Shown: piece after piece, positions 6,955 to 62,869 of the stretch | Numbering within the stretch: position 1 is the stretch's first letter | Layout of the letters: each line of letters begins with the position of its first letter | NCBI GenBank assembly: GCA_001029675.1 | Contig: CP011210.1 | Coordinates: 517,663 to 581,662 of the forward strand | Direction: 5' to 3' | Length of the DNA: 64,000 bases | DNA from: Candidatus Beckwithbacteria bacterium GW2011_GWC1_49_16 | GTDB taxonomy: Bacteria > Patescibacteriota > Microgenomatia > UBA1400 > CG1-02-47-37 | Position numbers and translations under genes: made by a program | Notes under the pieces: model-generated | The model's input: the letters and a program-made list of their open reading frames with translations, nothing else | What the model was told of the DNA's origin: nothing | The model's database searches: none

Positions 6955-6965
6955 ATGCTTATAAT

Positions 6966-6993
6966 AACAAAAATCCCGACAAAGTGCCGGGAT
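6966..6993 (-). terminator. terminator-like hairpin (ATCCCG-9nt loop-CGGGAT plus U-run) about 15 nt upstream of the ileS ATG
   Basis: Minus strand reads CATCCCGGCACTTTGTCGGGATTTTTG. It may terminate the upstream hypothetical pair or act as an ileS leader attenuator. Coordinates approximate. Confidence 0.3.
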
Positions 6994-7089
6994 GCACGCG
7001 ACGTAAAGCCGGTTTAACCGGACTTTAGCCGCTTGAGGTAATAATGATGTTATTGGCTTCGGTGATCATAGTGGCTATAGACTATCATA

Positions 7090-7632: not shown

Positions 7633-7638
7633 AATTGG

Positions 7639-28141: not shown

Positions 28142-29555
28142 GATTTAAAGCTTTCAAAATTGGTTTGTGCCAGTGAAAAATGTCGCCGGCGCCGATGGTA
28201 AAAATGATATCACCAGTTTCTGCTTTATCAATAAGGGTCCTAATCGTTGACTTTTGACCAGGGCAGTAAAACGTCTGGGGGTGGTTTTTTAACACCTCTT
28301 GAGCCAGAATTTTTCCGGAGATGCCCAGGTCGTCCGTCTCTCTGGCCGAGGCAAAGATTTTGTTAATGATGACTAAATCCGCCAGTTGAAAACTCTTGGC
28401 AAAATCGGTAAGTAAGGCCTTGGTGCGGGAAAAAGTGTGTGACTGGAAGACGGCGATCAAACGCCGGCCGGGAAACCAATCTTTGGCGGAGCGTAAAAGA
28501 GCTTTGATTTCAGTCGGGTGGTGGGCGTAGTCGTCGTAGAGTAAGATATCTCTCTTGGCGCGGCCGATAAACTCGAAGCGGCGCTTGGTTCCGCTAAACT
28601 TTTTGACGCCGGCTTTTATGGCATTTAATTTGACACCCAGGTGGTGGGCGACGACGACTGCGGCGGCGGCGTTTAAAACGTTGTAGCGGCCGGGAAGGTT
28701 AAGCACAAAATCGGGCCAAACAGCCCCTTTGTGGGCGAGGGTAAAAAACTGCTTTTGGTCGGCTAAATGGACTTTGGTCACTTGCCAGTCGGCTTGAGGG
28801 GAAAAGCCGTAGGTGGCTTTGGGGCCGTCAATATCTTTAAGCCAGGCAGCCACTCTAGGGTTGTCGACGTTGGCCACAATCAAGCCGGCGGCAGGCACCG
28901 CTTTGACAAAAGTGGCAAAAGCGTCAAACATGTCAGACAAATGGGGGTAGACGTCGGGGTGGTCGTGTTCCAAATTGGTGATGACGGCAATAAAGGGATC
29001 AAGGTGGTGGAACCTGGGGGTTGGATCAGAGTTCGGGTCGGTGACGTACTCGTCGGCTTCGGCAACAAAGTAGGCGGAAGCTTGATTGAAACGCCCCGGA
29101 GCGCCCAGGGCGGGGATGTCGCCGACGCCGACGGCAAAACTAGGATCAAGCCCCCCCTCGGTCAAAACCGTGGCGATTAAAGCGGCGGTGGTGGATTTAC
29201 CGCCGACCCCGGCGGTGGCGATCAACTTTTTATCCTGGCAAAAAAGCTTGAGGGCCTCGGCGTGGCTTAAAGTGGGCCGGTTTTTTTGTTTGGCGGCAAC
29301 CACTTCGACGTTAGTCGCCCCCCCGTGGGCGCCGGTGTAGATCAACAGGTCGGTATTTTTGGGGACGTTTTTAGCCTTGAAACCGGTTTTGACCCGGATG
29401 CCTTTCTTTTTGAGAATTTTGTCGGTGGGGAAAGCTTCTTTGAGGTCGGAGCCGGATATTTTTATTTTCAGGTCTTTGGCGCACAGGGCCAAAGCGGTCA
29501 TGCCGACGCCCTTGATGCCGGTAAAGTGGATCTTTTTAAACCTGGTCAGCCTCAT
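28134..29555 (-). CDS. murC: UDP-N-acetylmuramate--L-alanine ligase MurC
   Basis: 'IHFTGIKGVGMTALA' N-terminal Rossmann and Mur-ligase P-loop 'IATAGVGGKSTTAALIA'. Confidence 0.9.
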   Translation of the reverse strand: MRLTRFKKIHFTGIKGVGMTALALCAKDLKIKISGSDLKEAFPTDKILKKKGIRVKTGFKAKNVPKNTDLLIYTGAHGGATNVEVVAAKQKNRPTLSHAEALKLFCQDKKLIATAGVGGKSTTAALIATVLTEGGLDPSFAVGVGDIPALGAPGRFNQASAYFVAEADEYVTDPNSDPTPRFHHLDPFIAVITNLEHDHPDVYPHLSDMFDAFATFVKAVPAAGLIVANVDNPRVAAWLKDIDGPKATYGFSPQADWQVTKVHLADQKQFFTLAHKGAVWPDFVLNLPGRYNVLNAAAAVVVAHHLGVKLNAIKAGVKKFSGTKRRFEFIGRAKRDILLYDDYAHHPTEIKALLRSAKDWFPGRRLIAVFQSHTFSRTKALLTDFAKSFQLADLVIINKIFASARETDDLGISGKILAQEVLKNHPQTFYCPGQKSTIRTLIDKAETGDIIFTIGAGDIFHWHKPILKALNHA

Positions 29556-30751
29556 GAATTTACCAGATCCTGCTTGAGGTAGAGGGTTGTCCCGGCCGGG
29601 ATTGGCCGGGTTAAAACCACGCCTGAACCGACGACGGCATTTTGACCCAGAGTCACCCCGGGCATGACACTGGCGTTGACCCCGAGCTTGACGCCCTGGG
29701 CCAAAACCGCCCCCAGCTTGGTTTTGCCGGTATCGATGTCGCCGGTGGAAGTTTTCAGCTTGACGGCCTTGCCGTCAAAGCGGAAGTTGGCCAGACGCGA
29801 ACCAGAACCCAGGTTGACGCCGCCTTCGATGACCGAGTCGCCGACGTAGCTTGAATGAAAGAAGCTTTCGGGGCCGACGTAGCTGCGGGCGATTTCGGTT
29901 GAGTAGCCGACTACCGAACCGGCCTCGACGATCGAGTCGCGCACCAGGCAGTGGTTGCCGACGACGACGTTTTCCCCGATGTAGCTGCCTTTGACCACGG
30001 CGCCCTCCATGATTTTGGCCGAAGGCTCAATGGCGGATTTTTGGTCCAGGCGGTAGGTCAAAAAGGCGGCCACGGCGTCCAAGATCTGATGGGGGTGTTT
30101 TAGCTGGACAAAGTAGCCGGCGGCTTCAACCAAGTTGGCGGGCTGTTTTTCTACCAACTTACCCAGAGCGGTCTCATAGAGATTGTCTTTGGCAGAGGTG
30201 GTATTCTTGAGAACGTTTACCAGGTCAGCAATGTCGGGAAAATAGTCCAAAACCAGCTTGAAATAGTCGCTGGGCTCATCGCCGGGCCTGGGTTTTTCTA
30301 CTAAGCCGGTGACGGCGTCACCCTTTAGCTTAAAAAAGCCGCCGGATAGCTTGGCGCCTTTGAGCCCGGTAAGAACCGGGGCTTGGGGTTTTGACGAAAC
30401 GGCGGCAGTAAACCGGGAAATGATTTGAGGGTCAACCAGGTCGTCGGCGTTGACGACAATGGCCGGTCCGGATTTTATCTTTGCCGCCGCAGCCAAAACG
30501 GCGTCGGCCATGCCGGTGGCTTTTTCCTGGATGGCGGTTTCGACCTGGCCGCCGAGTACTTTTTTGACGGCCGTTTGGTTCCGGGGGCTAACGACAACAA
30601 CTGCCTGGGTGATGCCGGCTTTCTTTAAGTCCTCGACGATAAAATCAATCAGGGGTCGACCCAAAAACGGCAGCAAGGGTTTGGAAAGTGTCAGGGGGGT
30701 AAAACGCTTGCCCTCTCCGGCGGCTAAAATTATGGCGGTGGGTTTAGTCAT
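29552..30751 (-). CDS. sugar-1-phosphate nucleotidyltransferase with C-terminal left-handed beta-helix domain (GlmU-like candidate)
   Basis: N-terminal 'AIILAAGEGKRFTPLT..KPLLPF.G.PLI' nucleotidyltransferase signature. C-terminal hexapeptide repeats. Context is between murC and murE, next to glmS. Confidence 0.6.
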   Translation of the reverse strand: MTKPTAIILAAGEGKRFTPLTLSKPLLPFLGRPLIDFIVEDLKKAGITQAVVVVSPRNQTAVKKVLGGQVETAIQEKATGMADAVLAAAAKIKSGPAIVVNADDLVDPQIISRFTAAVSSKPQAPVLTGLKGAKLSGGFFKLKGDAVTGLVEKPRPGDEPSDYFKLVLDYFPDIADLVNVLKNTTSAKDNLYETALGKLVEKQPANLVEAAGYFVQLKHPHQILDAVAAFLTYRLDQKSAIEPSAKIMEGAVVKGSYIGENVVVGNHCLVRDSIVEAGSVVGYSTEIARSYVGPESFFHSSYVGDSVIEGGVNLGSGSRLANFRFDGKAVKLKTSTGDIDTGKTKLGAVLAQGVKLGVNASVMPGVTLGQNAVVGSGVVLTRPIPAGTTLYLKQDLVNS

Positions 30752-31980
30752 GGTTGTCTTTTTTTAAGGGCTTTTTTGACGGCGGCAAACTCATCCCAAG
30801 CATACTCTATTGTACCAAAACACATCGACTTTTCGTGGGACTTGCCAAACAGGCCGACCCAATCCCCCGGCTTAGCGATGTGAACCGCTAAATTTATCGC
30901 TGCCTGCCGGTCGGGCTGGCGGATAAAAACATGGGCGGCTTTTTTGGGGTAGCCGGCCTTGAGGCTGACTTCTTTGGCGCCGGCGGCAAGAGCGCCTTGG
31001 GCGATAGCGGTGATGATAGTGTTGACGTCCTCGGTCCGGGGGTCTTCGGCGGTCAGGATAGTCACATCAGCTAATTTGGCGGCAATCTCACCCATCTGGG
31101 GACGTTTGAGGCGGTCTCTTAGGCCGGCGCAGCCGAATACGGCGATGGTCCTGCCAGACCCGCCTTTGAGTGCCTTGATGGCTTGGAGAGCTCGTTCAAG
31201 AGCGTCAGGTTTGTGGGCAAAGTCAACTACCACGGTAAAGTCTTTTTGGTAAACCAGCTCCATCCTGCCGGGGATGCCCGGAAAAGATTTCAAGGCCTGG
31301 TTGACCGCGGCGGCTTTAACTCCCAGGTCCTGGGCCACGGCGGCGGCGGCGGCGATATTTTCCTGGTTAAAGTCGCCCAAAAGATTGGCGGCGGCAAGTT
31401 TGGTTTGAGGTTTGAAGCTTAAAACTTGGCCGCGGGCGATCTTTTTGGCGGCGGCATACGACTGGTCGGCCGAGTTTAACACCGCTACTTTGGCGGCTTT
31501 GACCAGTTTCAACTTGGCAGCGTGGTAGGAAGTGATCGTCTGATGATAATCCAGGTGTTCGTGGCGCAGGTTGATAATTAGCCCGTAGGCAAAATTTATT
31601 CCCCAGGTACGGTGCTGGTCCAGACCGTGGGAAGTGACCTCCAAGACCACGTGGGTCAAACCCTGATCGGCGATTTTTTTAAGCAGCTTTTGCAACAACC
31701 ACGGTTCGGGGTTGGTGACGTGAAGACCGATATCCACCCTCTTATCCCCGATCTTGGCGGCGACTGAAGAAACTAAAGCCACTTTGAAGCCGGCGGTTTT
31801 CAAGAGGTGATAAATAAGGTGCGTCGTGGTGGTTTTGCCCGAAGTGCCGGTAATACCAATAACGGTCAGTTTCCTTGAGGGAAAACCATAGACAACGTTA
31901 GCCAAAACGGCCTGGGGCAAGTGCCAGACGAGATTGATAAATTTTTGGGGAATAAGTTGGCGTAGGAAACTAAAACCCAT
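30748..31980 (-). CDS. murE: Mur ligase, MurE-like (UDP-MurNAc-L-Ala-D-Glu--diamino acid ligase), N-terminally short
   Basis: P-loop 'VIGITGTSGKTTTTHLIYHLL'. C-terminal 'TAEDPRTED' resembles the MurE DNPR box. Only 410 aa and apparently lacks the N-terminal UDP-binding domain. dcw position of murE. Confidence 0.65.
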   Translation of the reverse strand: MGFSFLRQLIPQKFINLVWHLPQAVLANVVYGFPSRKLTVIGITGTSGKTTTTHLIYHLLKTAGFKVALVSSVAAKIGDKRVDIGLHVTNPEPWLLQKLLKKIADQGLTHVVLEVTSHGLDQHRTWGINFAYGLIINLRHEHLDYHQTITSYHAAKLKLVKAAKVAVLNSADQSYAAAKKIARGQVLSFKPQTKLAAANLLGDFNQENIAAAAAVAQDLGVKAAAVNQALKSFPGIPGRMELVYQKDFTVVVDFAHKPDALERALQAIKALKGGSGRTIAVFGCAGLRDRLKRPQMGEIAAKLADVTILTAEDPRTEDVNTIITAIAQGALAAGAKEVSLKAGYPKKAAHVFIRQPDRQAAINLAVHIAKPGDWVGLFGKSHEKSMCFGTIEYAWDEFAAVKKALKKRQP

Positions 31981-32012
31981 GAGGGTATTTTACTATGAAG
32001 CTCCAAGCCGTG

Positions 32013-34928
32013 TCAGGATTTGGCCTTAGCCCACCTGTCCCGATAGATAAAGTAAAGCAGGCCGGCCGCTAAAAGAACGATCACAGTCATAACCGCCGGG
32101 GAGAAAAAGGGGTTTTGGGGTTTGACGGCTACGGTGATGTTGAACTCTTTCACTTCCCCCTCAAGGTCAATTTTCTCTTCACCCTTGAAGTTTTGGTAGG
32201 CGATTTCCACCCGATGCTCGCCCGGTTCAACCCCGGTGAAGGTAGCAATGCCGTCTTGGTTGGTTTGACTTTGTTTTGGCTCGGAGTAAAGGGTAACTTG
32301 AGCGCCAGCGACCGGATTTTTATCGCTATCCACCACCTTGATATTGACATTGTAGCCTGCCTCTTTTACTGCTTGCTTTTCTTCTTCGGTTTCGGCCGGT
32401 ACGGCTTCTTCATCAATGATTTGAGTTTTCATTTGGTTTGGAGCAAAAATTCCCCCTACCGCCTGGTTGACTGAGAGATAAAATGAAGTGGTCGAGCTGT
32501 TGTTGCCTTTGTCGTAGGCGGTTAACTCTGCCTGGTAGTAGCCTGTAGGCAAACTTTGGTCGAGGCCAAAATCAAAGCGGGTTGACTTAAGATTTTCTGA
32601 ATCGGTAAAGCCGGTCAACTTAAGCTCCTTTTCCAAATAATCGACAAAGTTTCCGGAAGCGTCTTGGAGCTTGAGTTTGAAGATTAACTGGTCCGGCCCG
32701 GAGGCGACTTTATCAAAAGTATCGGTGGTGCCGTCTGAATTGGTGACGCTTGAACCTCGGTAGGCATCGACCAAGTTGCCGCTTAAAGTTAGATTGTGAC
32801 TGCTAAGAACGACTTTCTGACCCGAAGCGTTAACTAGAGTGCCATTAACCGCTAGTTCTGCCAAACTCGGCGCAGTAAGATCGACCAAGACATCCGCGGC
32901 TTTAGTACGAGTGTCGGAGCTGACACCAGTGGCGGTCACCTGCCAAGAATGTTTACCTTCTGATAAAGCTTTTTGGTTTAGGCCTTTGAAAAAGACTTTA
33001 AACTGGTCGCTTAATTCCTCCGCTAAGTTGACGATGTCGACTTTAACGCTGGTGTCGTCCCGAAAAGTATAGTTGGTAGCCGAAGTGCCAGCGGCAGGCA
33101 AACCGCCGACCGAGTAGCGCTGATGTTTATCAGGGTCTAATGCTACCGAATAGGAAGAAATGGCTGATGAATCAGCCGAGGCTTTAAAGCTCAACGTCGG
33201 CTTAGTATCGTTGGTAAAGCCGGAAGGCGAGATTGGCTCAAAGATGGCAGCCACGGTAAAGCCATCGGAAGCGTAAAGACTGGCAGCGGCGTAGGCGTCG
33301 CCAGAGTCAAAACTCCTGACATAAATGGTGTGGGCGCCGGCCGAAAGGCTACTTAAGTCGCAACTAAAGCCCTCGGGTGAACCGTCGAAGCTGCCGTCGG
33401 TAGCCGAGCAAGAATTCCAAGTACCGGTGGTGGTGCTTGACGTGCTCCACTGGACGCCGGAAACAGCCACCCCGTCGGAAACCGTGCCGGTGAGTTGGGG
33501 AGTGGTGTCTTCGGTGATAGTAGTGTCAATAAGAGTAATGGCCGGCGAGCCGTGGGTAATCTCAAAAGCGTAAACTTGACCGGCAACCCCGGTGCCATTG
33601 CCGCCATAGATCGAGCTGACAAAAACTTCCTGCCAGCCGTCGTTGTCCATATCGCCAAACCAAACCACGTGGCCCAAGTTTTGGTTGGTAGTAGGGGTGG
33701 CTAAATCTGCCGAAGTAAAAGTCAAATCAGCAGTGGTATCAATAGTGGTACCGTCACTTAAAAAAATGTGAAATTGGCCCTCGTCGGAGCCGTCGATTTG
33801 ATAGGCTCCAACTATCAAATCTGTGTTGCCGTCGGAGTTGACGTCGTGCATCGCTAATTCCCGACCAAAGTTATCGTTGGCAGCGGCGCCGGAAAAAATA
33901 ATGTCAGCGTCGGTGGCATCATAAGTGGCACTCAAAGAACTCGAGCCCAAGAAGCAGTAGACCCGGCCGGCATTGGTGGCCGAAGTGTCGTTTAGGTAGG
34001 CGCCCAGGCAAAAGTCGGCTTTACCGTCCTGGTTGATGTCGCCGGTCTCGCCCGACGACCGGGTAAAGTTTTCGGTGGTGGTCTCGCCGGTGATGGTGAT
34101 GTCAACATCTCCGTTCATGGAGGAGCCGCCGTAGAAAATGTGAATCGTAGCTTGATCGCTGTAGTCTTCCCCAACCAAAATATCGTCGGCGCCGTCGCCG
34201 TTAACGTCTCCGGATACAAGTAGATCCTGGCCAAGCTTGTCAGAACCGGCCACAGCCAAAGTGACATCGGCAGTGGTGTCAAAGGTTTGGTCGCCGTCGC
34301 CGTAGAAAACCCTGACGTCGCCGGCGCTACTACTGGCTCCTTGAGCCGCAAAGGCAATATCCTGGTTGCCATCGGCGTTAAAATCGCCGGTGGTGATCGT
34401 GGAGCCAAATAAGTCGTTGGCGGTGGTGTTAGTAATGGTAATATCGGCTTCTGTGGCTGCGTCAATGGAGCTAGCTAACGAACTGGAACCAAAAATGATG
34501 TAAACCTCTCCGGCGTTTAAGGCGCCATCATCGTTAGAGGCGCTGCCAATAATCAAGTCGTCAGCTCCGTCGCCATCGATGTCAGTGGCCTTGTAGTTGT
34601 TGACTTGAATCAAATTGTCGCCCATGCTACCGGTGCCAGAATTGGTGATAGTAAGATCAACGGTGTCGTCAAAAGTAGCGCCCCCATAAAAAATATATAT
34701 TTTCCCCTTACCCGAAGCTGCTTGAGGGGCAGTAGCGATTAAATCTTGGTAGCCGTCACCGTTTAAGTCGGCGGCCATGACGTTATTGCTGCCAAAATAG
34801 GAATTATTGACCGTGTCGCTAGTGGTAACCACGCCTAACTCGGTCATGCCTAGGGCTAAAGCTGTTTGAGGCAAAAGTAAAAATAACAAACTGAAAATCA
34901 ACCAATAGAAAAACTTGTTCGAAATCAT
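32013..34928 (-). CDS. large secreted/surface protein with FG-GAP (integrin-alpha-like) repeats, Cna-B/CarboxypepD_reg-like domain and C-terminal TM anchor
   Basis: Signal peptide MISNKFFYWLIFSLLFLLLPQTALA. At least 7 repeats of type DLNGDGYQDLI / DIDGDGADDLIIG / DVNGDGADDILVG. C-terminal 'VKVVDSDKNPVAGAQVTLYSEP...GVEPGEHRVEIAY' followed by a TM helix and basic tail. Confidence 0.75.
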   Translation of the reverse strand: MISNKFFYWLIFSLLFLLLPQTALALGMTELGVVTTSDTVNNSYFGSNNVMAADLNGDGYQDLIATAPQAASGKGKIYIFYGGATFDDTVDLTITNSGTGSMGDNLIQVNNYKATDIDGDGADDLIIGSASNDDGALNAGEVYIIFGSSSLASSIDAATEADITITNTTANDLFGSTITTGDFNADGNQDIAFAAQGASSSAGDVRVFYGDGDQTFDTTADVTLAVAGSDKLGQDLLVSGDVNGDGADDILVGEDYSDQATIHIFYGGSSMNGDVDITITGETTTENFTRSSGETGDINQDGKADFCLGAYLNDTSATNAGRVYCFLGSSSLSATYDATDADIIFSGAAANDNFGRELAMHDVNSDGNTDLIVGAYQIDGSDEGQFHIFLSDGTTIDTTADLTFTSADLATPTTNQNLGHVVWFGDMDNDGWQEVFVSSIYGGNGTGVAGQVYAFEITHGSPAITLIDTTITEDTTPQLTGTVSDGVAVSGVQWSTSSTTTGTWNSCSATDGSFDGSPEGFSCDLSSLSAGAHTIYVRSFDSGDAYAAASLYASDGFTVAAIFEPISPSGFTNDTKPTLSFKASADSSAISSYSVALDPDKHQRYSVGGLPAAGTSATNYTFRDDTSVKVDIVNLAEELSDQFKVFFKGLNQKALSEGKHSWQVTATGVSSDTRTKAADVLVDLTAPSLAELAVNGTLVNASGQKVVLSSHNLTLSGNLVDAYRGSSVTNSDGTTDTFDKVASGPDQLIFKLKLQDASGNFVDYLEKELKLTGFTDSENLKSTRFDFGLDQSLPTGYYQAELTAYDKGNNSSTTSFYLSVNQAVGGIFAPNQMKTQIIDEEAVPAETEEEKQAVKEAGYNVNIKVVDSDKNPVAGAQVTLYSEPKQSQTNQDGIATFTGVEPGEHRVEIAYQNFKGEEKIDLEGEVKEFNITVAVKPQNPFFSPAVMTVIVLLAAGLLYFIYRDRWAKAKS

Positions 34929-37900
34929 GTCTTTTTTAGTTTAAGCAACTTTTTCAGCCTTTTCAAGTTGAATCCGATAATTAACGTCAAACCAGTCACT
35001 CCCAAGACTCGCCAATCGGCAAATGGGTTTTGCGGTTTGATTTTGATGGTCAGTTCAAACTTTTTCACTTGGTCGCCAGTCAAGTCAACTTTTTCCTCCC
35101 CGATTTTATCTTGGTAGGAAATTTTGATGGTGTGACTACCCGGTTCAAGACCGATAAAGCTGGCCGTACCGTTATTATCAGTGACGGCGGTTTTGGGGTC
35201 GGAAAAAACCGTCACCACCGCTCCTTCGACGGGTTGGTTTTGGCTGTCAACCACAATGATATTCAAGTCGTAACCTTGTTGCTTTGAACTAAAATCAGCC
35301 GGGGTGGTTTTTTCGCCCACGATCTCGGTTTGAAGTTGGCTGATAACGGTATTGACCCCGCCCAAACCTGAGCTAAAAGTGGTGGCGGAAACTATGTTGC
35401 TGGTGGGGCTACCAGCACATTCGTTGAAGGCTCTTAAAACAAAGTAGTAGCGCCTACCTGGCTCAAGAGATGAAACGGTAAACGAGGTAGATTGAGCGTC
35501 ACCTATCTGGCCGGCAGAATAAGAATAATTATCAAGCTCGGCGCCGTACTCTAAAAGGTAGTGACTGATGGTGCCGGTGCCAGGAGTAAAATTGAGGCTG
35601 ACTGATGAGGCGGAATCGGCGGTGGCTGAAGTCAGGGTCGGAGCCGACGGCGCGCCTGCAGAGCAGGCCCTAGAGACGGTTTTGGTGAGGTTGTCGATGG
35701 TAAAGGTAGCCGAGGCGTAGTTGGCTTGAGCGGTGTAAGACTGGTTGACGTCACCGACTTTGATATAAACTGTGTGAGCCCCGTCGGAAAGATTAGTAAC
35801 GTTACAAGAAAAGTTTTCGGACTTAGAGTTGAAACTGCCATCATCGGCACTACAGGCAACCCAGCCTCCGGAAGCCGAGTTACTATCCAACTGGTAGCTG
35901 ACGCTATTGATATTGGTAATCGAATTGCCGGCGGAAATAGAACCTTTTAAAGTCAAGGAGTTGCCGGAAAACGACGTCGGCACAGAACTTAGGCTGGTGG
36001 TATGGGGGAAGTTGTAAATTACATAAGCCGAACCAGAATCGGTCCGGGAATTATAGTCAGCACCATAGGCGCCGACCAAAAGGTCTAAAGAGCCATCACC
36101 GTTCATGTCCTCTAGTCCCAGGCTGTTGAAAGAAAAAATGTCAATGGCGTTGGCGCCGTCGTAGCGCAGGTTATAATTGTTGGGGTCTGACAAAGAAACG
36201 ACATTGGCGGTGCCGGTGTAGTCGTTAAAAAGATCGTTATAGATAATGTAAAACGACCCGGACCGATCGATGCTGTTGTTGCTCGATCTTCTGGCCGGAA
36301 AAATAAAGTCTAATAAACCATCGTTGTTGAAGTCTAAAACATGAAATTCCGATTCAACCAGAAAAGTACCGTCTTCTGTAGAAGCGGGTCCGTCGTAGCG
36401 AATGTTGTAGTTAGTCGAGGTAGCCATATCAATGATGTTGCCGGTACCGGTGTAGTCGTCGATTAAAGAATCATAAACAATATAGAGTGAGCCAGATCCC
36501 CATGAGGTATAATTGCCAGCCGAAGTGGCGGAAATTAACAAGTCGTTTTTGCCGTTGTTGTCGACGTCGACCACCAGGTCGTTTTCGTGGGAAAACAAAG
36601 CATCACTCTCGGCACCATCGTAACGGAGGTTAAAGTTATCCGTGTCGGATAAATCGACAGTGTTGCCGGTGCCGGAGTAGTCGTCAATCAAGCTGTTATA
36701 AATCACATACAAAACGCCGTTGTTGCTCCGACTCTGGGTGTCGGCCAGGTAAGCGCCGATAACCAAGTCCTTTTTACCGTCGTTGTCGACGTCGCCTACC
36801 TCCAGGCCGATATTAGATAATTTGTCGCTGGCGGCAGCGCCGTCGTAACGAATATTAAAGTTATCCGTGTCAGCCAAATCGACGATGTTGCCGGTGCCGG
36901 TGAGCGAGGAGTTAAAAATGCTATTGTAAATAACATACAAAGATCCCGAATCGGAGCGGGAGTTATAGTCTGTTAGCCCAGAACCGACGATAAGATCCAA
37001 GAGGTTGTCGTTGTCAAGATCCTTGGCTAGAAAAGCCCCGTGAGATAAGCCGTTACCACTGGTAGCCCCGTCAAAACGAAAAGTAAAGTTGGCAGTGTCA
37101 GATAAATCGACAGTGTTACCGGTGCCGGTGTATTTGGTAATCAGTGAATTGTCAAAATAGTAAAAAGCCCCAGAATCGGTGCCGTTGGTGCCGTCAAAGG
37201 CTACAGAACCTACCAGTAGATCCATATCACCGTCTTGGTCGAGGTCAACTGGCAACACCGATCTGGCCCCCAACTGATCGTCACCGTCGACGCCGTCGAA
37301 ACGGATGCTGTAGCTTGATGACTCGTTAAGGTCAAAGGTATTACCGGTGCCAGAGTAAGTGGCCAAAAGCGAACCATAAATAATATAAAAAGCGCTGTAG
37401 CTACCCGTCGCGTCAGAAGCGACCACAATCAAATCCTTGAGGCCGTCGCCGTCGAAGTCGGCGGCCTTGACGTCGCCCCAGCCGGTGTAGCTTAAGGCGT
37501 TGGCGCCGTCAAAGCGCAAGTTAAAGTCGGTGGTGTTGCCCATGTCGTAAGTTTTACTGGGAGAGGTGGTGACCGAGACGTCGTAATTAATCGTCAGGCG
37601 AGGTCTTTTGGGGGCGATCAAGTTTCCCGGAGTGTAATCGGCGGCATAAAAGTCCATACAGTTACCGTTGGATTCGGTTTCGGCTTTGACCAAAAAGCCG
37701 TAGTTGGTGGCCGAATTATCCAGCCACCCCTGAACTATCGCCACCCCCGAAGCGTTTAAGCTAAGGGTGATGTAGCCAGCCGAGCCGTCGGTGACCGATC
37801 CGCTAGCCAACAAGGTTGAGTTGTAGTCTGTATCGGCAGTAGACAGACCGGCCGACCCGGCCCAGTTGGTGGTGTTGTGGGCTAATTGATCCCAAGTAGG

Positions 37901-38317
37901 ATCACCGTCGGCGGCAGCAGCGCCGGCTTTGGAGCCTTCGGTGTAGCCGTCGTTTCCTGAAGCGACAGCATAAAGCTGCTGGGTGTGGTTGGCAGTGGTG
38001 TCGGCATGGTTGGTGTTGTAAAGCGACAAAGTTACTGAGTTAACCGTGGCCCCTGAAGGAATGGCGCTGGTTAAGTCAAAGTTTAATATACTCCTGTAGG
38101 TCACCGACGAGCAGACGCCGGATCTGATTTGAGTAGAAGCGCCGTAGTTTAGGCCGGAGTTGGCGCCACTAGCCACCGCAAAATCGACGACATAATCGGA
38201 GTTGGGCTTTAAAATGGCATTGACCGTGGCAGCTTGGGCAGAACCGGGAAAGTTTAGGATCAGCCAAAATCCGACTACTAACCAAACTGCCGGCTTGAGG
38301 ATTTTTGATAAAATCAT
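34925..38317 (-). CDS. large secreted/surface protein, paralog of the preceding, FG-GAP repeats plus FN3-like plus Cna-B/CarboxypepD_reg-like plus C-terminal TM
   Basis: Signal peptide ...NFPGSAQA. Repeats DFDGDGLKDLIVV, DLDQDGDMDLLVG, DVDNDGKKDLVIG, DMNGDGSLDLLVG and others. FN3-like 'SHYLLEYG...RRYYFVLRAFNECAGSP'. Shared module 'SCNVTNLSDGAHTVYIK' (compare 'SCDLSSLSAGAHTIYVR' in the paralog). C-terminal TM plus KKLLKLKK tail. AGGAGA Shine-Dalgarno 8 nt before the ATG. Confidence 0.75.
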   Translation of the reverse strand: MILSKILKPAVWLVVGFWLILNFPGSAQAATVNAILKPNSDYVVDFAVASGANSGLNYGASTQIRSGVCSSVTYRSILNFDLTSAIPSGATVNSVTLSLYNTNHADTTANHTQQLYAVASGNDGYTEGSKAGAAAADGDPTWDQLAHNTTNWAGSAGLSTADTDYNSTLLASGSVTDGSAGYITLSLNASGVAIVQGWLDNSATNYGFLVKAETESNGNCMDFYAADYTPGNLIAPKRPRLTINYDVSVTTSPSKTYDMGNTTDFNLRFDGANALSYTGWGDVKAADFDGDGLKDLIVVASDATGSYSAFYIIYGSLLATYSGTGNTFDLNESSSYSIRFDGVDGDDQLGARSVLPVDLDQDGDMDLLVGSVAFDGTNGTDSGAFYYFDNSLITKYTGTGNTVDLSDTANFTFRFDGATSGNGLSHGAFLAKDLDNDNLLDLIVGSGLTDYNSRSDSGSLYVIYNSIFNSSLTGTGNIVDLADTDNFNIRYDGAAASDKLSNIGLEVGDVDNDGKKDLVIGAYLADTQSRSNNGVLYVIYNSLIDDYSGTGNTVDLSDTDNFNLRYDGAESDALFSHENDLVVDVDNNGKNDLLISATSAGNYTSWGSGSLYIVYDSLIDDYTGTGNIIDMATSTNYNIRYDGPASTEDGTFLVESEFHVLDFNNDGLLDFIFPARRSSNNSIDRSGSFYIIYNDLFNDYTGTANVVSLSDPNNYNLRYDGANAIDIFSFNSLGLEDMNGDGSLDLLVGAYGADYNSRTDSGSAYVIYNFPHTTSLSSVPTSFSGNSLTLKGSISAGNSITNINSVSYQLDSNSASGGWVACSADDGSFNSKSENFSCNVTNLSDGAHTVYIKVGDVNQSYTAQANYASATFTIDNLTKTVSRACSAGAPSAPTLTSATADSASSVSLNFTPGTGTISHYLLEYGAELDNYSYSAGQIGDAQSTSFTVSSLEPGRRYYFVLRAFNECAGSPTSNIVSATTFSSGLGGVNTVISQLQTEIVGEKTTPADFSSKQQGYDLNIIVVDSQNQPVEGAVVTVFSDPKTAVTDNNGTASFIGLEPGSHTIKISYQDKIGEEKVDLTGDQVKKFELTIKIKPQNPFADWRVLGVTGLTLIIGFNLKRLKKLLKLKKT

Positions 38318-38371
38318 ACCGGTTGTCTCCTATTGTCATAGTACACGAAGGCTTGCTAAAGCAAAAGAGTT

Positions 38372-40126
38372 TCAGGGATTAGGGACGACGTTGAAGTGGT
38401 TAAGAAGATCCCGAGCAATCGAAAACCAGAGGGGCGCGGCGGTTTCCGAGGCCCAGGGGGAGGTAGAGGGTTCTTTTAAGGTCACCAGCATGGCAAACTT
38501 GGGGTCATTTGCCGGGGCAAAGCCGATAAAAGAGGCGTTGGTTGTTTCCTCCTGGTACTGGCCGCCGACGGCGATTTGAGCGGTACCGGTTTTGCCGGCT
38601 ATTTCGTAGCCTTGGGCGGCGGTCCACTTGGCCTCGCCCTCTTTGACGGCGGCGACCATCATCGCGGTCACTTTTTCGGCAGTCTCAGGCGAAACTACCC
38701 GAACTTTAGACTGGGGAGAAATTTCAATTTCCCTGGTGTCGCTGACAATGATGTCGACCACTTGGGGGGTGACCAGTTCGCCGCCGTTGGCAATTGAAGA
38801 CACGGCAGCGAGTAACTGCATCCCGGTGGCTAAAAACCCTTGGCCGAAGCTGGCGGTGGCCAGATCGACGTAGGTCCAGCGGTTATCTGCTTTCGGCTCT
38901 GGGGTGACTTCATCCTGAAGGTCGATGCCGGTTTTCTGTGTAAAGCCGAATTTCTTAAAGTAGTCCAAAAATTTATCCAACCCCAGTTTTTGGCCGACAA
39001 AAACCATGCCGACGTTATCGGAATGGACGATGATGTCGGTTACGGTCGAGTCGGGGAAGTACTCGTCGTTCCAGGTATTGATGGTGTATTTATCGATTTT
39101 TACCGGGCCGGAACAAATGTCACATCGCGTATCCGGCTCGACCGCCTCTTCTTCCAGAGCGGCGGCCATGACAAAGATTTTAAAAATCGAACCGGGTTCG
39201 AAAGCTTGCGATGTCACCGGGTTTAAAAAAAGTCGTCGATCATAGCGATAATACTCCATGGGATCGTAGGCGGGAAACGAGGCCATGGCTAAAACAGCGC
39301 CGGTTTTGGGATCGATGACCGTCACCGACCCGGCTTTGGCGCCGTAGCGTTCGACTCCGGCTTCAAGCTTTTTTTCTACCAAGTACTCTAAGCCCCGATC
39401 AAGATGGAGCTTTAATTTCCGGCCGTCGATGGTAGCTTGCTCACTAAAACTGCCGATGACAATCGGTTGGCCAAAGGCGTCTTTTTCCTGACGGATGATT
39501 CCGGGGCGGCCGGATAATTCCTGCTGGTAATAACCCTCCAGTCCGTGGTAGCCGGTGTCTCTGCCTTGGTCGTCTAAGCCGACAAAACCGGCCAAGTGGG
39601 CGGCCATGGAGGCTTCGGGGTAAAAGCGGCTTTGGTCGGCTTCAAAAAAAAGCGATTCGAGACTTAAAGCTTCAAGCTTGTCTTTTTGTTCAACCGTGAG
39701 TTTGCGGGCCAGCGGAATCCAAACCAGGTTTTCGTCTTTCAGCCTTTCGGTTAAAGTCGCTTCGGCCTTGTCTATGAACGAGTCTCTGGCTGCGGCTGAC
39801 AGCTGGGCTGAAGGGGTGGTTGATTGGGTCAGGTTGAGGTAGACGATGGGTGCCAGCTTCTCTGCCAGGCCTTCTGGCAGGGGTCCGCTTTGGCGAGACA
39901 AGTAGGCCAAATAGGCCGGCTGGTTGGCTACCAGGAAACTGCCGTCGGAGGTTAAAATCTCTCCCCTTCTGGCAGGGACTTCCAGGGTGGTTTGCTGCTG
40001 GGTTAAAGCCAGATCGGTCAACTGACCTGAAGCCAACACCTGCCAATAGAAAAGCCGGGCTAAAAGCAAAAAAGCCACCAACGAAAAAGCCAGGCTCAAA
40101 AGTTTTAAGCGCCAAACAAAATTCAT
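38372..40126 (-). CDS. ftsI: class B penicillin-binding protein (FtsI-like transpeptidase)
   Basis: N-terminal TM, then SxxK 'GSIFKIF', SxN 'HSDNVGM', KTG 'AGKTGTAQI'. dcw position after ftsL. Confidence 0.9.
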   Translation of the reverse strand: MNFVWRLKLLSLAFSLVAFLLLARLFYWQVLASGQLTDLALTQQQTTLEVPARRGEILTSDGSFLVANQPAYLAYLSRQSGPLPEGLAEKLAPIVYLNLTQSTTPSAQLSAAARDSFIDKAEATLTERLKDENLVWIPLARKLTVEQKDKLEALSLESLFFEADQSRFYPEASMAAHLAGFVGLDDQGRDTGYHGLEGYYQQELSGRPGIIRQEKDAFGQPIVIGSFSEQATIDGRKLKLHLDRGLEYLVEKKLEAGVERYGAKAGSVTVIDPKTGAVLAMASFPAYDPMEYYRYDRRLFLNPVTSQAFEPGSIFKIFVMAAALEEEAVEPDTRCDICSGPVKIDKYTINTWNDEYFPDSTVTDIIVHSDNVGMVFVGQKLGLDKFLDYFKKFGFTQKTGIDLQDEVTPEPKADNRWTYVDLATASFGQGFLATGMQLLAAVSSIANGGELVTPQVVDIIVSDTREIEISPQSKVRVVSPETAEKVTAMMVAAVKEGEAKWTAAQGYEIAGKTGTAQIAVGGQYQEETTNASFIGFAPANDPKFAMLVTLKEPSTSPWASETAAPLWFSIARDLLNHFNVVPNP

Positions 40127-44747: not shown

Positions 44748-45322
44748 ATTACTTCCTGTTGTTTTTTCTTTTCTAGCAATTCTAGCAAAAAAGGGAATTT
44801 TTGGTAGTTCGGGCCGTCGGTAGAAATAGAAAAGTGTTTGGCCCCGGGGACAACTTTCATTTCTCCTTCAAGATCAGCGGCCAAAGCTTTGGTTTCAGCT
44901 AACGGACAATAAGGATCTTCATCTCCGTGGATAAAGATTAGTTTTTTGGCCTTGTTTTTGATTTTGGCATAGTCTAAAGGCGGGTCAAAAAGGTCGACTA
45001 ATGACTCCCAGCCCAAATCGTGGGTAAAGGCGCTAACCAGATAGCAGTTGCCCACTTTTGTTCCAACCGGCAAAGCTTGAAGCAGTCCCAAGGCAGCCAC
45101 TGCCCCTGAAGAATGGCCGATGATGGTGGTATCCTCATTAAACTTAAAGTCTTTGTTTGCCAATAAAAACTGGTTGTAGCGGGCAATGTTGGGTTTGTCG
45201 GCTCCGGGGAGTTGGGGGAGCCAAATCTGGTAACCTTTTGCTTCTAGTTTTTCTTTGAGCCAGGGAAACCAGTTGTCGTTGGTGGTGGCGTTGGTGCCGT
45301 GGAGGATGAGAGCGGATTTCAT
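44744..45322 (-). CDS. YdeN/RBBP9-like serine hydrolase, paralog 2
   Basis: 192 aa. 'ALILHGTNATTNDNWFPWL', 'TIIGHSSGA', 'IHGDEDPYCP', 'GAKHF'. Clearly paralogous to the preceding gene. Confidence 0.7.
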   Translation of the reverse strand: MKSALILHGTNATTNDNWFPWLKEKLEAKGYQIWLPQLPGADKPNIARYNQFLLANKDFKFNEDTTIIGHSSGAVAALGLLQALPVGTKVGNCYLVSAFTHDLGWESLVDLFDPPLDYAKIKNKAKKLIFIHGDEDPYCPLAETKALAADLEGEMKVVPGAKHFSISTDGPNYQKFPFLLELLEKKKQQEVI

Positions 45323-45606
45323 TAGACAAACTTTATCTCTAGCTTTTTACCTAGAGCAGAAGCGAGTTTTTGGAGCAGGCCGACCGAGGGGTTAACCGCC
45401 ATGCTTTCCACCCGGGAAATGACCGCCTGGGTGGTATCGGCTTTTTTAGCCAATTGCCTTTGTGACAGCTTCTTTTCCAGGCGAGCCTTGATTAAAGCCC
45501 TGGTGGCTTGATATTGAGGCTCACTCTCTTCCCAGAGCCTTCTAAACTCAGGGTCTTTGAGCTGTTTCTTTAAAAGCTCGTCTAAAGTAATGTTTTTTAC
45601 CTTCAT
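45322..45606 (-). CDS. XRE-family HTH antitoxin (HigA-like)
   Basis: 94 aa. HTH 'LSQRQLAKKADTTQAVISRVE'. Immediately downstream of a Gp49-like toxin gene. Confidence 0.7.
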   Translation of the reverse strand: MKVKNITLDELLKKQLKDPEFRRLWEESEPQYQATRALIKARLEKKLSQRQLAKKADTTQAVISRVESMAVNPSVGLLQKLASALGKKLEIKFV

Positions 45607-45635: not shown

Positions 45636-45971
45636 TCATTTGTCAAGCAGCTGATAATATCTTTTCAAAGCCAAATTAATATCTTTTATCGGTGTTTTGC
45701 GTTTCTTTTTATAAAAAATGTTGAATATCATGATGGTAGATTTGTTTATCTGGGCACAAAGCAATCTAATGTTGTCTTTTCCTAAAATGCGTAACTCCCA
45801 AAAAACAGCGCCGGTTAACTTTTTAAGGCTGGGGTTGGCACGAGTCAAACCAAATTCTTGAAGGTAATAAAGCTGCCTAATTATCTTTGATCTTTGGCCC
45901 TTAGGGCACTTTTCGATAAAATCGTCAATTGGAGATTTTCGCTCTGCCGAAGTAAAAACTTCAACCCTCAT
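45636..45971 (-). CDS. Gp49/HigB-like (RelE/ParE superfamily) type II toxin
   Basis: 111 aa. 'VEVFTSAERKSPIDDFIEK...LQEFG...LKKLTGAVFWELRI.G.NIRLL' pattern of the phage-Gp49-like/HigB family. The toxin-first order is typical of HigBA. Confidence 0.6.
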   Translation of the reverse strand: MRVEVFTSAERKSPIDDFIEKCPKGQRSKIIRQLYYLQEFGLTRANPSLKKLTGAVFWELRILGKDNIRLLCAQINKSTIMIFNIFYKKKRKTPIKDINLALKRYYQLLDK

Positions 45972-50587: not shown

Positions 50588-51118
50588 TTATTTGATCTTT
50601 TTAGAATTTAGATGTTTGTCGGTGATGGAGGCAATGTGGGCTTCAAGGCTAGCGCGGCTGGGCGCGGGGGGTAAGCCAAAGCCAAGGTAAGTTAATAGTT
50701 TGGCTTCAAACTGCTCAATCAGGTTTTTGGGGGCAGAGGCAGAATTTAGTTTAGCTAAAGACTCGAGCAGTAACCGGTAGACTTCAGGGTGCTCTTGGCC
50801 CTCGGCGGTTAATTGGTCGGTTAATTCGCAAAGTAAGTAAGCCACCCGCACCCGGTTTAAGTTTTGACGCAGGTTCTTGAAGTTATTTAAGGTTTCCACT
50901 TCGGTAATCAGGTCTAAAGATTTACCCTTGGCGGCTAAGAATTTCACCTGGGTAAAAAGCTCTAAATGGCCCTTTTTTCTAGAGGTGAGGCGACGGACGC
51001 CTTTGGCCAGAAGCTTTAACTTGCCCTGGCGCTGGCTAAAAATAGTCACCAGCCGGTCGGCCTCGGAAAAGTTGTCGCGCTTTAAGACAATACCTTGGCC
51101 CGAGTAAGTCCGGGGCAT
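50588..51118 (-). CDS. recO: DNA repair protein RecO (short form)
   Basis: 'GIVLKRDNFSEADRLVTIFSQRQGKLKLLAKGVRR' N-terminal OB-fold signature, then a helical domain. Confidence 0.7.
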   Translation of the reverse strand: MPRTYSGQGIVLKRDNFSEADRLVTIFSQRQGKLKLLAKGVRRLTSRKKGHLELFTQVKFLAAKGKSLDLITEVETLNNFKNLRQNLNRVRVAYLLCELTDQLTAEGQEHPEVYRLLLESLAKLNSASAPKNLIEQFEAKLLTYLGFGLPPAPSRASLEAHIASITDKHLNSKKIK

Positions 51119-52981
51119 TTAGAAGCTGACTTGTCTGTCGCCGTCGAGATCAAACTCTTGGATTTGGTTTTCGAAGCTGACGGTATATTTGTGGTTTTTG
51201 CTGCCGGGCTGTTTTTGGATCAGCTGCGAATAACCTTCAGGGTTGACGCTTTCCGGCAGGCGGTACTTGAAAATGATTTTGGTTTTTGACTCGGGTCGGA
51301 GTTCGATAAAGCCCTCGAGCACGGTTTTGTTAAGGTCGAGGCTGGTAGCGGCCTCGATGTCAGAACCCAAAACCTCGACCAGCTCACTGCCTTCGGGAAC
51401 ATAAATTCTGATCCAGTCGCGCAGTAACCCATTAAGGCAAAGGCCGCCTGTTTCCAGGTTGCAGTCATCCGGCGGCTCGGGATTAGTGTAGGTGACGGTG
51501 ACGGTTTTTTCTATCTGGCCGCCTGATACAATAGAGATTTCCTGGTCGATACTTTGCTCGACATAAAGGTTAGATTTGGCACCGGCAAAGTTGGTGTCGA
51601 CCAACATAAAATAGTCCGAATCGGAGGCCTCGATCCTACCGGCAGCGGCAAAAACTTCGGCCACCGATTGCATCGTCTCGTCTTCAAAGTAGAACATTAA
51701 GTGTTTTTCTTTAATGTTATTTAAACCAATCTCGACAAACTGGGGCCATAACTTTTTGGGCGAGTTCATCACGTGGAGTAAAATGGCGTGCATCAAGGGG
51801 CCGATCATGCCTTTGCGGTTTTCCTTGATGTAGTAGGTGGGGCGGGTGGCGTAGTCTTCCATTTTGTAGACCACCTGGGGACAGTTGCATTCGGGGACGA
51901 TTTCGGCGTGGTAATCGCCCCAGTCGGCCACGCCGACTTGGCCGACGACTTTTAAGATATCGACGACGATCTGGGTGTCGATGGCGATGATGCCGTCGAC
52001 GTCGCGGTAAGAGGCTACAGCCTGGTAGTTAGGGAAAAATGTTTCCATGGAGACTTTAAAGTCGGGCGACAGGTTCATGTCCCGAAGATGCCAGTTATAA
52101 ACCAGGGGCAGGTATTTTAAAATCGGCTCGGGAGCGGGCAGGCGGTTGCCGAAGCGGGCGTCTAAAGCGTAGATATCTTCCGATAACACCGGAGTGACTT
52201 TGCCTTTGTGGGTTTCGAGGATGGCGTAGGCGGTCAAAAACCCACCCGAGGCTCTAAGCTCGGCGTCGTTTTGAAACACTAAAAGATAGGTTTTCGGGTC
52301 TGGTTCACCCAAAAGTTGGGGCAGCAGGCTCAAAAGCGGTTTGATGTTTGCTAGCGTCTCCTTGGTGCTTTTGAGGCTGTCTTGGATGGTGATCAATTGG
52401 CCGCGAACGGGCCGACCGCGAAAAGATTGAGGATAGCGGCGGGGGTTTATTTGGCTGATCTCAAACTCAATTTGGGCCACTTTGGCGCTGACGTTGTCAA
52501 GCTCGGGGGCGATCTTGTCCAAAGTATCGAGGATAAAGATAATTTTTTCTTCGGCGGACTGGATGTTTAAATCGGCATCCTTGGCCTCAAAACCCAAAAC
52601 GTCGGCGTAGGGCTTGATGGCAGCCAAAACTATCTGGCCGGCGTCAAGGCTGAAAGAAGTGGCGTTAAGGCCGTGTTGGCCGTCGGAGACGTAACCACCG
52701 TAAACCGGGATAAACTTGGCCCAAGAAATGAGGCGGTATTTAGCTTGGGTGGCCGAAAGCGATTCTCGAGCCTGACTCAAACTCGTTTCGGCGGCGGTTA
52801 AGTCTTTGTTTTGAATGGCAGTAAAACTAGCCCGCAGAGAGTCGAGGGTTTTTTGGGCGGGGGCCTTGACTTGCCAAGCGACGAAAAGACTGTAGACAGT
52901 CAAGACGGCCAAAAAGGCAAAAACTGCCAGGTAGATCTTCTTGGCCCTGGATGAGAGGATGATGGACTTTATTTTTACCAT
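51119..52981 (-). CDS. N-terminally anchored extracytoplasmic protein, possibly DUF4012-like, associated with glycan locus
   Basis: 620 aa. Single N-terminal TM 'IYLAVFAFLAVLTVYSLFVA'. Directly downstream of the phosphoglycosyl transferase. The DUF4012 family assignment is from memory and tentative. Confidence 0.4.
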   Translation of the reverse strand: MVKIKSIILSSRAKKIYLAVFAFLAVLTVYSLFVAWQVKAPAQKTLDSLRASFTAIQNKDLTAAETSLSQARESLSATQAKYRLISWAKFIPVYGGYVSDGQHGLNATSFSLDAGQIVLAAIKPYADVLGFEAKDADLNIQSAEEKIIFILDTLDKIAPELDNVSAKVAQIEFEISQINPRRYPQSFRGRPVRGQLITIQDSLKSTKETLANIKPLLSLLPQLLGEPDPKTYLLVFQNDAELRASGGFLTAYAILETHKGKVTPVLSEDIYALDARFGNRLPAPEPILKYLPLVYNWHLRDMNLSPDFKVSMETFFPNYQAVASYRDVDGIIAIDTQIVVDILKVVGQVGVADWGDYHAEIVPECNCPQVVYKMEDYATRPTYYIKENRKGMIGPLMHAILLHVMNSPKKLWPQFVEIGLNNIKEKHLMFYFEDETMQSVAEVFAAAGRIEASDSDYFMLVDTNFAGAKSNLYVEQSIDQEISIVSGGQIEKTVTVTYTNPEPPDDCNLETGGLCLNGLLRDWIRIYVPEGSELVEVLGSDIEAATSLDLNKTVLEGFIELRPESKTKIIFKYRLPESVNPEGYSQLIQKQPGSKNHKYTVSFENQIQEFDLDGDRQVSF

Positions 52982-57802: not shown

Positions 57803-57806
57803 AAGT

Positions 57807-62842: not shown

Positions 62843-62869
62843 AAATTTCTAATTGACCTAATTTCTAAA

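Follow-up and report, generated by a model that had tools for sequence, protein, structure and literature searches.

The 64-kb window analyzed here, a stretch of contig CP011210.1 from Candidatus Beckwithbacteria bacterium GW2011_GWC1_49_16, carries on its minus strand a peptidoglycan and division (division/cell-wall, dcw) cluster, into which two genes for large surface proteins are set. The cluster opens with mraZ (41761-41321), rsmH (41324-40446), and a 108-residue open reading frame (ORF) at the ftsL position (40449-40123); then come ftsI (40126-38372), the gene for protein A (38317-34925; 1130 residues), the gene for protein B (34928-32013; 971 residues), and murE (31980-30748). An archaeal-type glmU-like gene, murC, murB, murA, and glmS lie 3′ of murE, and murF, femAB, mraY, a murL-like gene, murD, ftsW, murG, ftsA, and ftsZ lie further 3′ in the window. 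NCBI names a partial copy of protein B as Candidatus Beckwithbacteria, and the nearest FtsI proteins are from Beckwithbacteria, Microgenomates, or Patescibacteria. The original prediction, made from the sequence before any search, had two same-strand ORFs of 971 and 1130 residues embedded between ftsI and murE in a dcw cluster; both ORFs, their neighbors, and the gene order are confirmed. A and B represent an ordinary kind of protein for the phylum in an unusual, non-conserved location. The features of the locus, in the direction of transcription, are as follows.

38372..40126, minus strand: ftsI, the upstream neighbor, encoding a class B penicillin-binding protein (PBP) with PBP_dimer and Transpeptidase domains.
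38318..38371, minus strand: ftsI-A spacer, 54 nt, with the left part of the ancestral ftsI-murE spacer preserved (CAAGCCTTCGTGTACTA; the close relative L088 has AACCTTCTTTTACTAGG).
38326..38331, minus strand: AGGAGA Shine-Dalgarno element, 8 nt 5′ of the protein A ATG (38317), by direct reading.
34925..38317, minus strand: protein A coding sequence, 1130 residues, with signal peptide, DNRLRE domain, seven FG-GAP blades, Ig-like module, fibronectin type III (FN3) domain, CarboxypepD_reg domain, transmembrane (TM) helix, and basic tail.
38231..38317, minus strand: protein A signal peptide, residues 1-29, cleavage predicted between AQA and AT (heuristic; n/h/c regions and AXA rule).
37589..38176, minus strand: protein A DNRLRE/disaggregatase-repeat-like domain, residues 48-243 (NF033679, E 1.2e-17, 64.5 bits against a cutoff of 34).
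36008..37492, minus strand: protein A FG-GAP region, residues ~276-770, seven blades of ~75 residues (PF01839, E 1.6e-27).
35663..35995, minus strand: protein A post-propeller module common to B, likely Ig-like, from the alignment of A with B; contains SCNVTNLSDGAHTVY; fold not confidently modeled.
35384..35647, minus strand: protein A FN3 domain, residues 891-978 (PF00041, E 1.1e-11).
35042..35272, minus strand: protein A membrane-proximal CarboxypepD_reg (transthyretin-like) domain, residues ~1016-1092 (Pfam, E 2e-9; predicted local distance difference test score, pLDDT, 79-91 in the AlphaFold2, AF2, model).
34928..35020, minus strand: protein A KPQNPF juxtamembrane stretch, TM helix, and KRLKKLLKLKKT tail, residues ~1100-1130 (from the sequence; AF2 helix 1102-1128).
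34925..34928, minus strand: ATGA, in which the stop codon of A overlaps the start codon of B, by direct reading; translational coupling probable.
32013..34928, minus strand: protein B coding sequence, 971 residues, with signal peptide, seven-bladed FG-GAP propeller, β-sandwich stalk, CarboxypepD_reg domain, TM helix, and basic tail.
34854..34928, minus strand: protein B signal peptide, residues 1-25, cleavage predicted between ALA and LG (heuristic).
33549..34802, minus strand: protein B seven-bladed Ca-type FG-GAP β-propeller, residues 43-460 (PF01839, E 4.2e-37; seven motifs; AF2; Foldseek).
32439..33548, minus strand: protein B stalk, residues 461-830, with the shared SCDLSSLSAGAHTIY module and Big_13-like β-sandwich domains (alignment; AF2 confidence low).
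32118..32360, minus strand: protein B CarboxypepD_reg domain, residues ~857-937 (Pfam, E 7e-10; AF2 pLDDT 80-92).
32016..32099, minus strand: protein B TM helix and YRDRWAKAKS tail, residues 944-971 (AF2 helix 944-970), with KPQNPFFSP just upstream.
31981..32012, minus strand: B-murE spacer, 32 nt, with the right part of that ancestral spacer preserved (TAGTAAAATACCCTCATG; L088 has TAGTATAAAATATACCTATG).
30748..31980, minus strand: murE, the downstream neighbor, short form of 410 residues (TIGR01085, 348.6 bits against a cutoff of 257.3).

How would the two genes be expressed? The ATGA overlap and the strong Shine-Dalgarno element, both noted in the original prediction, can be read directly from the DNA. 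Neither the ftsI-A nor the B-murE spacer holds an intrinsic-terminator-like site, so read-through transcription is likely, and the ATGA overlap makes coupled translation of A and B likely. The AT-rich TAGTAAAAT element directly before murE, one of the recognizable halves of the ancestral spacer, was flagged by a promoter scan too, and the scan places a σ70-like match at 32016-31987, on the B-murE border. Rfam and tRNA scans of the window returned nothing near the A/B locus.

By their alignment, A and B are paralogs: their identity is 27% over 665 aligned columns (E 2e-26) in the propeller together with the shared SC[DN].. module, and 46% (E 9e-32) in the last 120 residues, with the membrane-proximal pedestal being the most conserved part. 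Both signal peptides were called heuristically, from a K-containing n-region, a hydrophobic core, and an AXA site. The strict Ca motif, Dx[DN]x[DN]Gxx[DE], occurs seven times in B and six times in A, in which a seventh, degenerate copy can be seen by eye (DLDNDNLLD, around residue 433); PF01839 scores 125.9 bits over six stretches in B and 95.3 bits over five in A, against a cutoff of 22.1, and the DNA of the A propeller has a periodicity of 225-234 nt. Further Pfam matches, to domains of the stalk type, are the fn3 domain of A and weak SpaA/Big_1 matches. The C-terminal hydrophobic helix of B is strong (Kyte-Doolittle hydropathy 2.2) and is followed by a K/R-rich tail; that of A is weaker, yet helical in the AF2 model, and its tail on the predicted cytoplasmic side, KRLKKLLKLKKT, is likewise K/R-rich. 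The original prediction had anticipated most of this, namely cleavable signal peptides, Ca-binding FG-GAP repeats in both proteins, a common internal module, an FN3-like segment in the larger one, a carboxypeptidase-regulatory-like domain, and an adhesin-like Nout-Cin topology ending in a TM helix and a basic tail; the profile matches, the alignment of A with B, and the AF2 helices support this architecture. The N-terminal DNRLRE domain of A is an addition to its list. This region also has a sub-threshold match to a Methanosarcina disaggregatase-related repeat (PF06848, E 6e-7), and a relevance to glycan or cell-aggregate binding, although speculative, is possible.

The β-propeller, also part of the original prediction, was examined by structure modeling. 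The AF2 model of B, computed from a 25-sequence alignment, is confident over the propeller (residues 50-455, pLDDT mostly 70-90), the membrane-proximal region (residues 830-940, 80-92), and the helix at 944-970, and unreliable over stalk residues 459-743. In a Foldseek search of the PDB with this model, the top 50 matches are all integrin α chains (best E 4.7e-17), with full-length chains at the head of the list. The TM-score, normalized to the target, is 0.62-0.65 against isolated integrin headpieces; the global TM-score against integrin α is only ~0.3 because the domain orientations and the stalk of B are not confidently modeled. On the strength of the model, we count the propeller fold of B as established, and the modeled layout of the protein (propeller, β-sandwich legs, one TM helix, short tail) is integrin-α-like. 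For A, a 20-sequence alignment gave a mean pLDDT of 48, with ~50-75 over the propeller, and this model was left out of the fold search.

If B is laid out like an integrin α chain, how far does the likeness go? A and B share with the metazoan proteins the N-terminal seven-bladed propeller, the β-sandwich legs, the single TM helix, and the short tail, predicted to be cytoplasmic. By contrast, sequence identity is only 10-17%; Ca sites are present in all blades of A and B, rather than in blades 4-7 only; the tails (YRDRWAKAKS and KRLKKLLKLKKT) lack a GFFKR motif; and the legs are FN3, Big_13-like, and transthyretin-like instead of thigh and calf. No domain that could mark an integrin β partner (βI/VWA) is present in A, B, or the neighboring genes scanned. 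Bacterial integrin-type FG-GAP propellers (PF01839; the VCBS/integrin propeller supercluster) do have Ca sites in all seven blades, and the bacterial examples described have neither a TM helix nor legs that can be recognized, a cytoplasmic location having been suggested for them (Chouhan et al., 2011; PMC3192720). A and B resemble these propellers in their seven FG-GAP blades and DxDxDG Ca2+ loop, and differ from them in their signal peptide, β-sandwich stalk, TM helix, and short basic tail.

The C-terminal part of the proteins leads to a wider family. A search with full-length B was dominated by generic FG-GAP proteins (Ignavibacteria, Moranbacteria), 31-38% identical over the propeller alone, and yielded no ortholog; the non-propeller half was therefore used as the query. 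It retrieved only three other proteins, P0121, P0122, and P0123, which share the stalk and C-terminus of B at 34-41% identity (39-42% over the stalk for P0121 and P0122) and have different heads: DUF7483 in P0121, a GDSL lipase and TIG in P0122, and DNRLRE and fn3 with an unassigned region in between in P0123. A profile of the last ~140 residues, seeded with A, B, and these three proteins and run against 1.84 billion cluster representatives, matched 7546 of them at E≤0.001 and 208 at E≤1e-30. Among 149 sequences examined (the 146 top matches plus P0121-P0123), the module forms the extreme C-terminus, with a TM helix, in 126; in these, the tail has a median length of 9 residues and a median net charge of +4, and the juxtamembrane stretch, 11-15 residues long, contains [S/N]P in 99, at a fixed distance of 11-15 residues from the last strand. 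A and B fit this layout: their CarboxypepD_reg domain is followed by the juxtamembrane stretch of that length, the TM helix, and, at the extreme C-terminus, the K/R tail. Their membership by profile is circular, as both are seeds, and pairwise E values to independent members are 1e-19 to 1e-35.

The heads of this family are diverse. Pfam matches in 46 sampled members include fn3, Big_13, right-handed β-helix, GDSL and SASA esterases, DUF2341, LamG, and BNR; propellers of the SBBP, PQQ, NHL, Kelch, and sortilin types; and, in 10 of the 46, peptidoglycan-binding LysM domains. The few named members are Patescibacteria or Daviesbacteria. Judged by these sequences, this is a very large head-swapping surface-display family, of which A and B are FG-GAP-headed members. 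No curated Pfam or NCBIfam model was found for the whole anchor module, and the literature yielded no description of the family or of the A/B arrangement, only general reports of large surface proteins of the Candidate Phyla Radiation (CPR). Family members elsewhere lie away from dcw genes: all 22 metagenome loci with an anchor module lack a dcw gene in the DNA examined (up to 10 kb per side), and stalk/anchor homologs also lie in a non-dcw context on L003 and L006, the two contigs long enough to judge. On L093 (423-7574), two members with SBBP (900 residues) and PQQ-like (1163 residues) propeller heads stand in tandem, followed by a protein with PEGA and SH3 domains; this is a non-dcw counterpart of the A/B pair.

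Two groups of described surface proteins come close. Fibrillar adhesin-like proteins of monoderms also have an N-terminal head, a stalk (fn3, the SpaA/transthyretin clan, Big), and a C-terminal anchor, and about half of them have no known anchor (Monzon et al., 2021; PMC8286594). Unlike these adhesins, with their LPXTG/sortase attachment and long tandem arrays, A and B have as their anchor a TM helix and basic tail after a conserved CarboxypepD_reg domain, and a short stalk of about 3-4 domains. Large FG-GAP-annotated extracellular proteins of CPR bacteria (Peregrinibacteria, for example) are thought to mediate attachment (Anantharaman et al., 2016; PMC4736985), and A and B share with CPR surface proteins a strain- or species-specific content. 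The Peregrinibacteria proteins, however, are cysteine-rich and encoded in a 14-gene cluster, whereas A and B contain few cysteines (6 and 4), end in a defined anchor module, and are encoded in a dcw cluster.

Do related bacteria have the same arrangement? A set of 17 aligned FtsI sequences led to 80 species-level Microgenomates loci with 10-kb flanks, onto which the cluster genes and A and B were mapped. None of the 80 contains an A- or B-like gene or the anchor module. An exact look-up added the three nearest relatives, whose FtsI is 67-70% identical, and neither in these nor in the 80 does an A/B-like, FG-GAP, or anchor-module gene adjoin ftsI. Among the 80, the first gene recognized beyond ftsI is murE in 52 loci, with murA taking this place in 16 and mraY in 4. 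The gap between ftsI and murE among the 52 is at most 200 nt in 35, 201-1300 nt in 14, and more than 1300 nt in 3; in two of the three closest relatives, L088 and L091, murE follows ftsI after 63 nt. The ftsI-murE spacer is thus a recurrent, permissive insertion site in Microgenomates, and the premise of the original prediction, that dcw clusters normally hold only murein and division genes at this junction, proved too strong for this group, in which 17 of the 52 loci carry more than 200 nt extra there. In the larger gaps, nucleotidyltransferase-like, alanine-racemase-like, and Ddl-like ORFs, a possible PHP-type hydrolase, and small membrane proteins were recognized by eye from the sequence. 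In the window, the halves of the ancestral spacer are still recognizable on both sides of the A/B insert.

Some of these spacers hold genes of the opposite orientation. In L090, the third of the closest relatives (FtsI 67% identical), a 391-residue ORF without a Pfam match lies between ftsI and murE on the opposite strand (6873-8048, minus); in L010, another Patescibacteria genome and one of the 17 loci with extra sequence, the spacer contains an opposite-strand IS200-like Y1 transposase (6193-6864, minus; PF01797, E 4e-9); and in L012 a similar gap of ~770 nt has no forward-strand ORF of at least 70 residues. Opposite-strand genes being tolerated at the junction, ftsI and murE need not share one transcript in this group. 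A same-strand, lineage-specific dcw insertion is also present in Bacillus subtilis, where spoVD, a PBP paralog with a role in wall synthesis that is conserved in its clade, lies between pbpB and murE. A and B are like spoVD in being extra genes on the same strand at the ftsI(pbpB)-murE junction, and unlike it in being unrelated surface proteins found in one species.

The arrangement might instead be an assembly chimera, produced by mis-joins at the murE and ftsI junctions that flank the insert. The GC content at third codon positions (GC3) of A and B, 0.57-0.58 against 0.62 for ftsI and murE, is slightly low, as such a join could leave it. Yet GC3 and relative synonymous codon usage (RSCU) of both genes fall within the range of other window genes, and both halves of the spacer match the spacers of relatives. 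Exact matches to A and B occur in 88 indexed data blocks. For A and for B alike, 24 contigs of up to 497 kb, drawn from several independent assemblies, were read, and all lead to a single gene neighborhood (one contig ends inside murE), which is identical in at least three separate ENA assemblies (ERZ27254767, ERZ28564412, and ERZ4903125). Independent assemblies thus reproduce the arrangement, and an assembly join, which the original prediction had itself named as one way in which it could fail, is effectively refuted, with a negligible probability left to it. A recent transfer of A and B from a compositionally different donor was likewise rejected, since neither codon usage nor GC is an outlier. 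Nor are there traces of a mobile element near the insert: a repeat search detected neither direct or inverted repeats at its flanks nor tandem repeats, only the FG-GAP periodicity. In L115, the sole variant contig, A and B are identical to the window copies and so carry no information on diversifying selection. The only difference in this contig (10001-11755 against window 38372-40126) is a cluster of 6 nucleotide changes, altering 5 amino acids, in the stretch of FtsI (residues 309-315) that surrounds the active-site SxxK motif; this stretch reads F-E-P-G-S-I-F-K in the window and S-D-P-V-S-F-L-K in L115, with S313 and K316 retained; either a real PBP variant or a local assembly error could explain it.

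What does the place of A and B next to ftsI mean? The original prediction answered with a surface structure assembled in step with division; in the form weighed here, an attachment or cell-cell apparatus would arise at the septum or the new pole while FtsI drives septal wall synthesis. The common strand, the short spacers, both without a terminator-like site, the ATGA coupling and strong Shine-Dalgarno element, and the stability of the arrangement in every contig of the species read are what such a tie would lead one to expect. Its absence elsewhere is not: none of the 83 related ftsI neighborhoods (80 species loci and the three nearest relatives) carries A/B-like genes, and the missing conservation speaks against a functional link with division. 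Moreover, other family members lie away from dcw genes, Pfam and NCBIfam find no division-related domain in A or B, and relatives carry a transposase on the opposite strand or an unrelated ORF in this spacer, so the junction is not a tightly constrained operon interior. If true, the coupling would be a rare case of adhesin deployment being connected to the divisome; the evidence from relatives speaks against it, this part of the original prediction was not upheld, and we regard the idea as improbable. Equally a long shot is a broader version, in which the anchor module may define an undescribed Patescibacteria-wide display or sorting system and A and B may pair as a heterodimer tied to septal wall synthesis, loading new poles with attachment receptors as a bacterial analog of an integrin-type receptor linked to the division machinery. 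Attachment of an epibiont is a possible role for A and B, yet one that is generic for large CPR surface proteins.

A place among wall genes could also be selected without any role in division, if A and B are threaded through or bound to nascent peptidoglycan, for example via the pedestal, and co-expressed with the enzymes that make it. The pedestal is indeed the best conserved part of the two proteins, LysM domains recur among the sampled family members, and the junction genes of relatives are, by eye, frequently of the wall-precursor type (GlmU-N-like nucleotidyltransferase, Alr-like, Ddl-like). A and B themselves, however, have no LysM, SH3, or other wall-binding domain in Pfam; other family members, the L093 tandem pair included, are found outside peptidoglycan clusters; and occurrence in a single species is equally expected from neutral insertion. 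This explanation is weaker than a plain insertion and, in our estimate, unlikely. The anchor raises another question: could the [S/N]P motif, TM helix, and basic tail be a cleavable sorting signal of the sortase, exosortase, or archaeosortase kind, which would leave A and B covalently bound to wall or lipid? The layout is stereotyped across the family, with a juxtamembrane motif, ~17-20 hydrophobic residues, and a K/R cluster, and [SN]P keeps its fixed distance from the last strand in most members. But the motif is not invariant, and A itself lacks SP or NP at this position; LPXTG, PEP, PGF, and GlyGly motifs are not visible in the C-termini of A and B; the NCBIfam sorting-signal models give no match to either at E≤0.01; and the scanned subset of ORFs in the window contains no sortase-like gene. 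We regard processing of this kind as highly improbable.

We favor, as the probable explanation, a species-specific insertion of two ligand-binding, membrane-anchored display proteins that are probably read through from the dcw promoter. It builds on the gene structure, the domains, the propeller fold of B, the family membership, and the absence of the arrangement from relatives. Several observations pull the other way. Junction insertions in relatives are often envelope-related (nucleotidyltransferase-, alanine-racemase-, and Ddl-like, judged by eye from N-terminal sequences), and the site may therefore favor envelope genes rather than be neutral. The insert is invariant in all sampled contigs, which is compatible with selection for its location; its codon usage is native-like, and its borders bear no repeats or traces of mobile elements. 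The AF2 model of A is poor, co-transcription of A and B with the dcw genes is likely from the sequence rather than observed, and an FG-GAP propeller alone does not define a function or a ligand.

On the favored reading, A and B would be type I membrane proteins that leave the cell by the Sec route and lose their signal peptide to signal peptidase I at the AXA site; threading out would halt at the C-terminal stop-transfer helix, leaving a basic tail of 10-12 residues in the cytoplasm. The conserved transthyretin-like pedestal would then stand at the membrane, and the Ig/FN3-like β-sandwich stalk would hold the seven-bladed, Ca2+-loaded FG-GAP propeller off it, with the extra DNRLRE domain at the tip in A only. 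The pair would have been inserted into the ftsI-murE spacer in one Beckwithbacteria species; it is probably expressed by read-through from the dcw promoter, with the ATGA overlap probably fixing the A:B ratio. The job of the two proteins would be surface binding, to a partner cell, a particle, or a glycan, and not cell division.

Several other genes of the window are worth recording. MurE is short here (410 residues) and in the relatives L088, L090, and L091 (362-399 residues), and in all four the Pfam matches are limited to the middle and C-terminal Mur ligase domains, with none to the N-terminal domain. The adjacent GlmU-like gene (29552-30751, minus) is of the archaeal bifunctional type (TIGR03992, E 5e-61), not bacterial GlmU; in L009, L026, L039, L025, and L090, an additional, N-terminal-only nucleotidyltransferase adjoins it. 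Between mraY and a murD-like ligase, a 524-residue ORF (15230-16804, minus) matches the NCBIfam model of MurL, the UDP-MurNAc-L-Ala-L-Glu epimerase (E 1.7e-81), with a score of 274 bits, below the equivalog cutoff of 700; murL-like matches also occur in L072 and L087. The ORF is a hint that a CPR bacterium may use an L-Glu route of the MurD2/MurL type; its listed start overlaps mraY by ~290 nt, and translation probably begins further downstream. Close to the dcw region, on its upstream side, an ORF for a Gp49-like (HigB-type) toxin (45636-45971, minus; PF05973) is followed by a 94-residue ORF (45322-45606), whose identical copy in L115 matches HTH_3, suggesting a likely toxin-antitoxin pair. 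Finally, a run of envelope-glycan genes at ~51100-62850 (minus), encoding DUF4012, a Bac_transf sugar transferase, a PMT-family mannosyltransferase, and a protein with a Wzy-like O-antigen ligase domain, looks like a locus for surface polysaccharide or glycosylation.

What, then, does the A/B pair teach? The anchor family is a more useful lead than the dcw context, indeed the most useful one to emerge: large and apparently uncurated, it offers a handle for cataloging candidate host-attachment and glycan-active surface proteins of Patescibacteria. The pair exemplifies how the surface of small-genome CPR bacteria diversifies, with a conserved anchor and stalk recombined with different binding or enzymatic heads, and indicates that new copies of surface proteins can land even inside an otherwise conserved division and cell-wall cluster. 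It also carries a caution: operon position in a single genome is a poor guide to function.

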